The notes: a model not told the origin generated them from the letters alone. DNA of 64,000 bases from an uncultured Desulfosporosinus sp. (GCA_927405585.1 CAKMJS010000060.1:14883-78882); one strand, 5' to 3'. Shown: positions 27,307 through 29,044, numbered from the stretch's first letter. Numbers and translations: made by a program.

Positions 27307-27687
27307 ATGAAATATAGTTACGCAGAATATGTTTTATTATTTAAGGCTATATCCGACCAAACACGCCTGAAAATAGTTGACATACTTTCTGGCGGAGAAA
27401 TGTGTGCCTGTCAACTCTTAGATAACTTTACAATTACTCAGCCAACCTTGTCATATCATATGAGAATTCTGTGTGAGAGTGGACTCGTTCAGGGAAAACG
27501 AGATGGGGCGTGGATGTATTATCGTCTCGATGGTGATGTAGTAGAAAATATCTCTGAGTTTTTGTTCAAAATCAAATCTAATACAAAACAAGCTTTCAAA
27601 GAGCAAGGAATCAAAGACCAAGGAATCAAAGACCATGGTATCAATGGGCAAGGTAGCTGCAAGTCTAAGAAAAAGTGTAATTGTTGA
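27307..27687 (+). CDS. arsR: ArsR/SmtB family metalloregulator
   Basis: FKAISDQTRLKI, GEMCACQL (alpha3 Cys pair), TQPTLSYHM, C-terminal CKSKKKCNC; ATG 27253 abuts the -10, so ATG 27307 (GGAG RBS) is preferred. Confidence 0.88.
   Translation: MKYSYAEYVLLFKAISDQTRLKIVDILSGGEMCACQLLDNFTITQPTLSYHMRILCESGLVQGKRDGAWMYYRLDGDVVENISEFLFKIKSNTKQAFKEQGIKDQGIKDHGINGQGSCKSKKKCNC
27598..27657 (+). repeat. 15-bp tandem repeat in the arsR tail
   Basis: AAAGAGCAAGGAATC AAAGACCAAGGAATC AAAGACCATGGTATC AATGGGCAAGGTAGC (KEQGI-KDQGI-KDHGI-NGQGS). Confidence 0.8.
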
Positions 27688-27726
27688 GCTCACTCATGAA
27701 GATCAAAAAGAAGAGGTGTCGGCAAG

Positions 27727-28731
27727 ATGGAAATTACCAGCAGAGAACTAAAAACCATTCCAACAACAGCTGAATTGACGTTTAAAGATACTTTAGGTAC
27801 TTGGAAAGCACGCTGGGGAATTGGTAGAATGACCTTTAACGTTGATCCCGGTCTCTATAGTTTGGGGAAACCTGATACCGATTCCCCGGTTCTGGTTTCA
27901 GCGAATTATAAAATGAGCTTCGATAGTCTAAGAAAAGAATTGAAGGGGCTAAATGCCTGGATACTCGTGCTTGATACCAAGGGCATCAATGTATGGTGTG
28001 CTGCTGGGAAGGGAACCTTCGGAACCCAAGAGCTCCTGAACCGAATAGCGATCGTCCAACTTGAGAAGTTTGTAGCTCACAAAACGGTTATTGTACCTCA
28101 GCTGGGCGCTCCAGGGATAAGTGCTCACGAGGTTAGAAAGTATTCTGGTTTCAAAGTGATTTATGGACCAGTCAAGGCTAAGGATCTGAAACAATTCATC
28201 CGTTTAGGAATGCAAGCCACCACTGAAATGCGGACGGTGAGATCCAGTCTGTACGATCGCCTGGTTTTGACTCCAGTGGAATTAGTCGGCACGTTTAAAA
28301 TTTCCTTGATGATTTTCGGAGTACTCTTTTTATTGAATCTGTTGGGATTAGGCCCCTTCGGAGTGGTTGATTTTTACGGCTATGTGGGGGCAGTCATCGT
28401 AGGTTGTGTTATAACTCCAATCTTACTACCATGGATTCCCGGCAGAGCGTTCGCCTGGAAAGGCTGGCTATTGGGATTTATTTGGGCTATCATTGTGAAC
28501 GTACTGAATGGCTGGACGGCTGTTCCCGAGCACAGCATTTTGAGAGCTTTAGGGTATTTACTCATTTTACCCTCCATATCTGCCTTCTTAGCCATGAACT
28601 TTACAGGGTCTTCAACCTTTACTTCCTTTTCAGGGGTCTTGAAAGAAATGAAAGTAGCTGTCCCCGCAATAATTATCTCCATAGTATTAGGGGTAGTTCT
28701 GATTCTAGCGAATACTTTTATAAAACTCTAA
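27727..28731 (+). CDS. hgcA: Mercury methylation corrinoid protein HgcA
   Basis: Cap-helix motif INVWCAAGKG, VPQLGAPG, C-terminal TM region ending AMNFTGSSTFTSFSGVLKEM. Confidence 0.96.
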   Translation: MEITSRELKTIPTTAELTFKDTLGTWKARWGIGRMTFNVDPGLYSLGKPDTDSPVLVSANYKMSFDSLRKELKGLNAWILVLDTKGINVWCAAGKGTFGTQELLNRIAIVQLEKFVAHKTVIVPQLGAPGISAHEVRKYSGFKVIYGPVKAKDLKQFIRLGMQATTEMRTVRSSLYDRLVLTPVELVGTFKISLMIFGVLFLLNLLGLGPFGVVDFYGYVGAVIVGCVITPILLPWIPGRAFAWKGWLLGFIWAIIVNVLNGWTAVPEHSILRALGYLLILPSISAFLAMNFTGSSTFTSFSGVLKEMKVAVPAIIISIVLGVVLILANTFIKL

Positions 28732-28744
28732 GGAGTTGTTGTTA

Positions 28745-29044
28745 ATGCAAAATCTATATCTAAAAAATGTGGCAACGTTGAAAATGAAGTCCGAGCTTTG
28801 TACGGGCTGTGGCAAGTGTCTTGAGGTTTGCCCGCATAATGTATTTCTCATGAAAGATTCAAAAGCGGTTATTCTTGATAAAGACCGTTGTATGGAATGC
28901 GGTGCCTGTGCTAAAAACTGTGCGTTTAACGCCATCGAAGTTAAGCAAGGGGTTGGCTGTGCATTTGCTATCATCATGGGCTGGCTAACAGGATCGGAAC
29001 CAAACTGCGATTGTTCGGGTAACAGTGGTGGTAGCTGTTGTTAG
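28745..29044 (+). CDS. hgcB: Mercury methylation ferredoxin HgcB
   Basis: CTGCGKCLEVCP and CMECGACAKNC 4Fe-4S motifs, Cys-rich tail CDC...SCC; ATG 28745 after AGGAG. Confidence 0.95.
   Translation: MQNLYLKNVATLKMKSELCTGCGKCLEVCPHNVFLMKDSKAVILDKDRCMECGACAKNCAFNAIEVKQGVGCAFAIIMGWLTGSEPNCDCSGNSGGSCC

Follow-up and report, generated by a model that had tools for sequence, protein, structure and literature searches.

To our knowledge, no genetic marker of microbial methylmercury production other than the gene pair hgcAB is known. In the encoded system, HgcB reduces the corrinoid of HgcA to Co(I) and the corrinoid is methylated. All tested methylators carry hgcAB. In Pseudodesulfovibrio mercurii ND132, the regulator ArsR2 is co-transcribed with hgcAB and regulates it, responding to As(III), As(V) and S-adenosylhomocysteine (SAH) and not to Hg (Gionfriddo et al. 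2022/2023); that paper mentions neither Firmicutes nor an operator. Experimental evidence for co-transcription of arsR and hgcAB comes only from Pseudodesulfovibrio. Here we describe an arsR-hgcA-hgcB locus in a 64,000-nt stretch of DNA from an uncultured Desulfosporosinus sp. (GCA_927405585.1 CAKMJS010000060.1:14883-78882; the whole stretch is called the window below). We conclude that this locus is probably a self-contained, autoregulated operon and that its host is a predicted Hg methylator.

All three reading frames are intact and evolve under purifying selection, and their products belong fully to the ArsR/SmtB, HgcA and HgcB families. The genes lie on the + strand in the order arsR, hgcA, hgcB, with gaps of 39 bp (27688-27726) and 13 bp (28732-28744), and the positions given in a preliminary description of this DNA proved exact to the base. 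HgcA matched the NCBIfam model HgcA_corrinoid NF040863 over its full length with 494.8 bits (cutoff 275, E=1.1e-148) and HgcB matched HgcB_ferredoxin NF040864 with 131.3 bits (cutoff 99, E=8.3e-39), both being curated equivalog hidden Markov models (HMMs) of the kind that the preliminary description had proposed as a check. Two other identities for HgcA were rejected: the scores for an HgcAB-like fusion protein (189.3 bits) and for corrinoid iron-sulfur protein (CFeSP)/acetyl-CoA synthase gamma (68.9 bits) stayed under the respective cutoffs of 285 and 306. Pfam placed a CFeSP-type CdhD domain at residues 36-151 of HgcA and 4Fe-4S domains in HgcB. A sequence search of a copy of the PDB with HgcA returned CFeSP large subunits as the sole matches (E about 1e-8), with no HgcA chain among them. 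Residues N88-K95 of HgcA, the cap-helix motif, were invariant across 29 homologues. The hydropathy profile showed five peaks, corresponding to hydrophobic segments, between residues 183 and 330, and the secondary structure of a low-confidence AlphaFold2 model contained five long helices at 175-333. HgcB carries two CX2CX2CX3C motifs (CTGCGKCLEVC at 19-29 and CMECGACAKNC at 49-59), with further cysteines at Cys72 (GVGCAF), Cys88/90 (CDC) and the terminal vicinal pair Cys98-Cys99; the motifs named in the preliminary description, NVWCAAGK in HgcA and CMECGAC, CDC (88-90) and CC (98-99) in HgcB, were all located. Relative to four relatives, dN/dS was 0.075-0.10 for hgcA, 0.04-0.12 for hgcB and 0.14-0.23 for arsR, and we therefore conclude that all three genes are maintained by purifying selection. 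The model scores, the signature residues, the low dN/dS and the synteny confirm the identity, the intactness and the order of the genes as claimed earlier.

The arsR gene is preceded by one strong promoter, which two conserved 20-bp palindromes bracket. With TAGACA and TATAAT separated by 17 nt (11 of 12 matches), this promoter is the best such site in 26700-29500. Both palindromes have the form ATATAGA-N6-TCTATAT and lie 36 bp apart, one on either side of the -10 box; this pattern has only two matches in the window, both of them here, even when two mismatches are allowed. The three genes are predicted to be read as one transcript, because this single strong promoter precedes arsR, no promoter- or terminator-like site was found on the + strand from 27307 as far as the start codon of hgcA, the genes are spaced by 39 and 13 bp, and a separate Shine-Dalgarno sequence (GGAG or GAGG; GGAG for hgcB) precedes every ATG by 8-10 nt. 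The start of arsR at 27307, where the protein begins MKYSYAEYV, has a GGAG 8 nt upstream and is kept in relatives. A longer arsR open reading frame from the ATG at 27253 was rejected, since this ATG directly follows the -10 box (27247-27252), falling in the promoter/operator region, and relatives do not conserve it. A search for a riboswitch or structured leader gave no Rfam match between 26000 and 34500 at E<=0.1; the fold of 27070-27215 was no better than those of shuffled sequences (z = -0.97).

Features of the arsR-hgcA-hgcB locus, in coordinates of the window
Feature	Position	Strand	Description
Sigma-70-type promoter	27224-27252	+	TAGACA (27224-27229), 17-nt spacer, TATAAT (27247-27252)
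Operator-like palindrome 1, ATATAGAcaattaTCTATAT	27221-27240	+	Extended 12-0-12 palindrome at 27219-27242; overlaps the -35 hexamer
Operator-like palindrome 2, ATATAGAgaacccTCTATAT	27257-27276	+	Extended palindrome at 27255-27278; just past the -10 box, spanning the expected transcription start
arsR	27307-27687	+	126 aa; ArsR/SmtB-family winged-helix repressor
Tandem repeat in arsR, unit TCAAAGACCAAGGAA	27596-27644	+	15-bp in-frame repeat, 3.3 copies, towards the 3' end of arsR
hgcA	27727-28731	+	334-aa corrinoid protein; CFeSP-like domain at the N-terminus, five hydrophobic helices at the C-terminus
Cap-helix motif NVWCAAGK	27988-28011	+	HgcA residues 88-95; Cys91 is the predicted lower-axial cobalt ligand
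hgcB	28745-29044	+	99-aa 2x[4Fe-4S] ferredoxin
CMECGAC	28889-28909	+	HgcB residues 49-55

Species-representative genomes were scanned and yielded 80 hgcA loci, mostly from Firmicutes. The host is Desulfosporosinus-like: its nearest named HgcA proteins are those of D. fructosivorans (88% identity), D. burensis (84%) and D. youngiae (82%). Among the 80 loci, hgcB follows hgcA in 78, mostly after a gap of 10-20 bp, and in 45 of the 75 loci where this could be tested, an ArsR homologue encoded on the same strand ends no more than 300 bp before hgcA. D. youngiae JW/YJL-B18 (GCA_000244895.1) and D. fructosivorans 63.6F share with the window the arsR-hgcA-hgcB order, the strand, the promoter and the two palindromes, and the ArsR and HgcB of D. 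youngiae are each 79% identical to the window proteins. The arsR-hgcA gap differs: it measures 39 bp in the window, compared with 58 bp for D. youngiae and, according to the hgcA start codon chosen, 60-81 bp for D. fructosivorans. The flanking genes of both species are entirely unlike those of the window. The window's own flanking genes adjoin hgcAB in none of the 80 loci and were rejected as part of the system, which leaves the three-gene cassette as the only conserved unit.

The promoter region is conserved well beyond the window. In a 12-genome alignment of 83 bp, the elements ATAGAC..TCTAT, TATAAT and ATAGA..T..AT were invariant and the flanks diverged. This footprint of promoter and palindromes was found in 11 relatives, two of which have no adjacent arsR and carry the architecture directly before hgcA. 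More distant Firmicutes have a related site, ATATTGA-N6-TCGATnT, at a fixed position of -67 relative to arsR, often with a second at -31. Altogether, 34 of the 45 arsR-adjacent loci have a related site (at most three mismatches) at fixed offsets within 200 bp upstream of arsR, where the density of such sites is about 1.2 per 200 bp; elsewhere, other non-coding DNA included, it is about 0.05 per 200 bp.

Two species link these palindromes to hgcAB itself. In D. lacus (L011 3887-3947) and D. nitroreducens (L012 3886-3946), the same promoter and both palindromes, here spaced by 41 bp instead of the 36 bp of the window, lie directly upstream of hgcA, and no arsR was found within 4 kb of hgcA. Because they directly precede hgcA in these species, we tie the palindromes to hgcAB expression; their presence with no arsR nearby therefore implies regulation in trans by an ArsR encoded elsewhere in the genome. 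Four other Desulfosporosinus loci (L004, L008, L013, L014) have hgcAB with neither an adjacent arsR nor palindromes upstream, and control of hgcAB is therefore not uniform within the genus.

The regulator encoded by the cassette matched PF01022 (HTH_5) with 56.5 bits (cutoff 22) and the ArsR/SmtB HTH_metalloreg model NF033788 with 87.9 bits (cutoff 55). Its cysteines are Cys33-x-Cys35 in helix alpha-3, Cys56, and Cys118, Cys124 and Cys126 in the C-terminal tail. The segment EMC33AC35QL aligns with the thiolate site ELCVCD of the Lmo1102/CadC-like structure. The alpha-3 Cys-x-Cys is invariant in all 46 hgcA-adjacent ArsRs, and 39 of the 46 have at least two further cysteines, typically as Cys-x-Cys, in their last 25 residues. 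The tandem repeat of the window arsR encodes (QGIKD)-like pentapeptides that separate the DNA-binding core from the C-terminal cysteines, an insertion that the ArsRs of relatives lack. The exact sequence of the locus is present in four subsurface-metagenome runs of one study, and the k=31 contigs of these runs end at 27633 and restart at 27606, inside the repeat. We consider the join between arsR and hgcA reliable because the contigs overlap by 28 bp, their depths match and relatives show the same synteny; the copy number of the repeat, which is in frame, may vary or be mis-assembled.

In relatives, a gene of the low-molecular-weight protein tyrosine phosphatase (LMW-PTP)/ArsC-like kind, or a homologue of it, lies at most 4 kb from hgcAB in 23 of the 80 loci. 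In six of them (L017 3557-3976, L018 3559-3975, L016, L022, L005 and L023), which include Desulfosporosinus sp. BG and OT, D. acididurans and three Desulfitobacterium/Syntrophomonas genomes, a 139-aa gene of this kind stands between arsR and hgcA; in the remaining 17, other Firmicutes loci, it is found elsewhere within 4 kb, usually downstream of hgcB. Orthologues that are 75-79% identical to the window ArsR head such arsR-(LMW-PTP/ArsC-like)-hgcAB operons. Based on the analogy with ND132 ArsR2 and on these close orthologues, As(III) is the most likely effector of the window ArsR.

We propose the following model. ArsR dimers would sit on both palindromes, covering the -35 hexamer and the transcription start, and thereby repress the promoter. 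A thiophilic metal(loid) would bind Cys33-x-Cys35, probably together with the C-terminal cysteine pair, and release the repressor, after which a single arsR-hgcA-hgcB mRNA could be made. In the resulting proteins, as established knowledge of HgcAB leads us to expect, the methyl group would pass from the Cys91-ligated cobalt of HgcA to Hg(II), yielding methylmercury. We also lean, by a modest degree, towards a broader reading in which the palindromes (ATATAGA-N6-TCTATAT, and ATATYGA-N6-TCGATnT in more distant Firmicutes) are the operator of a Firmicutes ArsR clade dedicated to hgcAB, defined by the alpha-3 Cys-x-Cys and a C-terminal Cys-x-Cys tail, and working in trans in D. lacus and D. nitroreducens. 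Within the literature library that was searched, no paper was found that pairs hgcA with an operator or inverted repeat, and none that describes this dual-palindrome promoter or the cysteine signature of the hgcAB-linked ArsR of Firmicutes.

Several observations count against the model of an autoregulated, arsenite-responsive operon that produces methylmercury. Occupancy of the palindromes by ArsR is an inference. No intrinsic terminator was found 3' of hgcB, either by scan or by folding. The locus was found in no RNA run, and in DNA runs only as k=31 contigs. The effector assignment is weakened by a cysteine layout unlike that of ND132 ArsR2 (C47/C49/C86/C88), and the third alpha-3 cysteine of R773 ArsR is not present, position 38 being Leu. 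The LMW-PTP/ArsC-like gene is missing from the window, and the protein of the relatives scores 83 bits against the NCBIfam arsenate-reductase cutoff of 215. The AlphaFold2 model of HgcA, built from a 29-sequence alignment of close relatives, is poor (mean pLDDT 55, pTM 0.44). Finally, hgcAB transcript levels do not predict the methylation rate in ND132.

Part of this uncertainty concerns what ArsR senses. The layout and the repression could be as described and the effector still differ from arsenite, either Cd, Zn, Pb or Hg bound at a four-thiolate site (CXC + CXC), or SAH or a persulfide. In favour of this, the four cysteines recall an S4 site of the CadC type, CadC-like proteins are the best solved relatives of the window ArsR, and the BigR and SdpR models gave sub-threshold matches to it; the window has no ars genes, and Gionfriddo et al. 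raise a non-arsenite effector for ND132 ArsR2 alongside the reported SAH response. We nevertheless consider this rather unlikely, given that close orthologues precede an ArsC-like gene, that ND132 ArsR2 answers As(III) and As(V) but not Hg, and that 7 of the 46 ArsRs have no C-terminal cysteines, which makes the tail dispensable for the clade. A different question is what the cassette was selected for. Mercury methylation might be a side reaction of proteins whose selected role is another corrinoid-dependent reaction, such as reductive halomethane dehalogenation or arsenic-linked methyl transfer, a possibility that we take seriously without favouring it. It is compatible with an organism that still methylates, and the 2026 preprint behind it, in which heterologously produced HgcAB is reported both to methylate Hg and to dechlorinate CCl4, is not peer-reviewed; it also draws on ND132, where Hg does not induce hgcA and the hgcAB knockout is more sensitive to As(V), and on the strong purifying selection acting on the cassette in a subsurface organism with no evident link to Hg.

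The remaining alternatives deny the operon or its function. It is very unlikely that arsR is a mere neighbour, its palindromes controlling arsR alone and hgcAB being read from a promoter of its own. Some loci would leave room for one (in 15 of the 45 loci counted as arsR-adjacent, 85 bp separate arsR from hgcA), and several Desulfosporosinus have hgcAB with no adjacent arsR. In the window, however, the gap is 39 bp and no promoter-like site lies from the arsR start to the hgcA start, the only nearby match being a weak one (9 of 12) inside hgcA at 27801-27830; moreover, the palindromes stand directly before hgcA in D. lacus and D. nitroreducens. That the locus is silent or non-functional, and the organism no Hg methylator, we regard as highly improbable: three intact frames, the presence of all catalytic residues, dN/dS well below 1 and an in-frame repeat speak against it, although both flanks carry decayed genes and the arsR repeat is ambiguous in the assembly. 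Assignment to an ars (arsenic resistance) operon was rejected, since hgcA and hgcB follow arsR and no ars gene or ArsC-like match was found anywhere in the 64-kb window. The autoregulated arsR-hgcA-hgcB operon remains the reading that we prefer.

The surroundings of the cassette gave additional observations. On the - strand at 29048-29450 lies a decayed gene of the CobW/HypB/UreG GTPase family, an N-terminal P-loop fragment (Pfam cobW, profile 7-77 of 180) with an in-frame stop before GFLGSGKTT, a frameshift after GCICC and a truncation 4 bp from the hgcB stop. Such a remnant would fit a rearrangement or an insertion where the cassette ends on its 3' side. On the other side, at 26816-27080 on the + strand, two short overlapping frames resemble a frameshifted MORN-variant/YwqK-like repeat protein (Pfam MORN_2, 16.8 bits, under the cutoff); if real, it would place gene remnants on both flanks. 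Further upstream, the window encodes a GGDEF protein and, at 23275-26816 on the + strand, a cysteine-desulfurase-like protein (TIGR01976), two small class-I S-adenosylmethionine (SAM) methyltransferases, one of them with a weak resemblance to CpaM (67 bits, cutoff 180), and a YedA/EamA exporter. Convergent to hgcB, at 29474-33970 on the - strand, is a corrinoid-dependent methyltransferase operon with a 583-aa RACo/AcsV-like reductive activator, two MtaA/CmuA-family methyltransferases and a 215-aa corrinoid protein. Its position next to hgcAB is probably coincidental, the operon being unlinked to hgcAB in relatives.

The trait and the linkage to arsR are already known; the present analysis adds a conserved promoter with two palindromes and the cysteine signature that marks the hgcAB-linked ArsR of Firmicutes. 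The preliminary description was right that the trait is known, hgcAB and methylation being established in Desulfosporosinus: D. acidiphilus methylates Hg, and D. youngiae, which the literature treats as a methylator, reportedly does so as well (Gilmour et al. 2013). Its prediction of a Hg methylator finds support in the identity, intactness and order of the genes, an ordinary result for the genus. For environmental risk mapping it is useful, though unsurprising, to have one more subsurface/groundwater Desulfosporosinus flagged as a probable methylator. The promoter-palindrome architecture, together with the cysteine signature, offers a testable model of hgcAB control in Gram-positive methylators, outside the work on ND132. 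Should the palindromes be the operator of a dedicated ArsR clade, they would provide a sequence-defined handle on the switching of hgcAB in these bacteria.

The corrinoid-binding domain of the CFeSP large subunit (CFeSP/AcsC, PDB 2h9a and 4djd) is homologous to HgcA residues about 36-160, to which HgcA adds the Cys cap helix and a five-helix membrane domain. Canonical R773/E. coli ArsR and CadC share with the window ArsR the winged-helix HTH_5 domain, the alpha-3 Cys-x-Cys and, putatively, an autoregulated promoter with a palindromic operator; unlike them, the window ArsR has no third alpha-3 cysteine and carries an extra C-terminal Cys-x-Cys tail, and the genes that follow it are hgcA and hgcB, in contrast to the arsB, acr3 or arsC of a canonical ars operon. 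Other described arrangements of this kind are arsR2-hgcAB of P. mercurii ND132 and the locus of P. hydrargyri BerOc1 (Goni-Urriza et al. 2020), where an ArsR/SmtB regulator also lies directly upstream of hgcAB on the same strand. These belong to another phylum, and co-transcription and regulation are experimental results there. The cysteine layouts differ as well: ND132 ArsR2 has two Cys-x-Cys pairs at C47/C49 and C86/C88, whereas the window ArsR combines the alpha-3 pair C33/C35 with its C-terminal tail.

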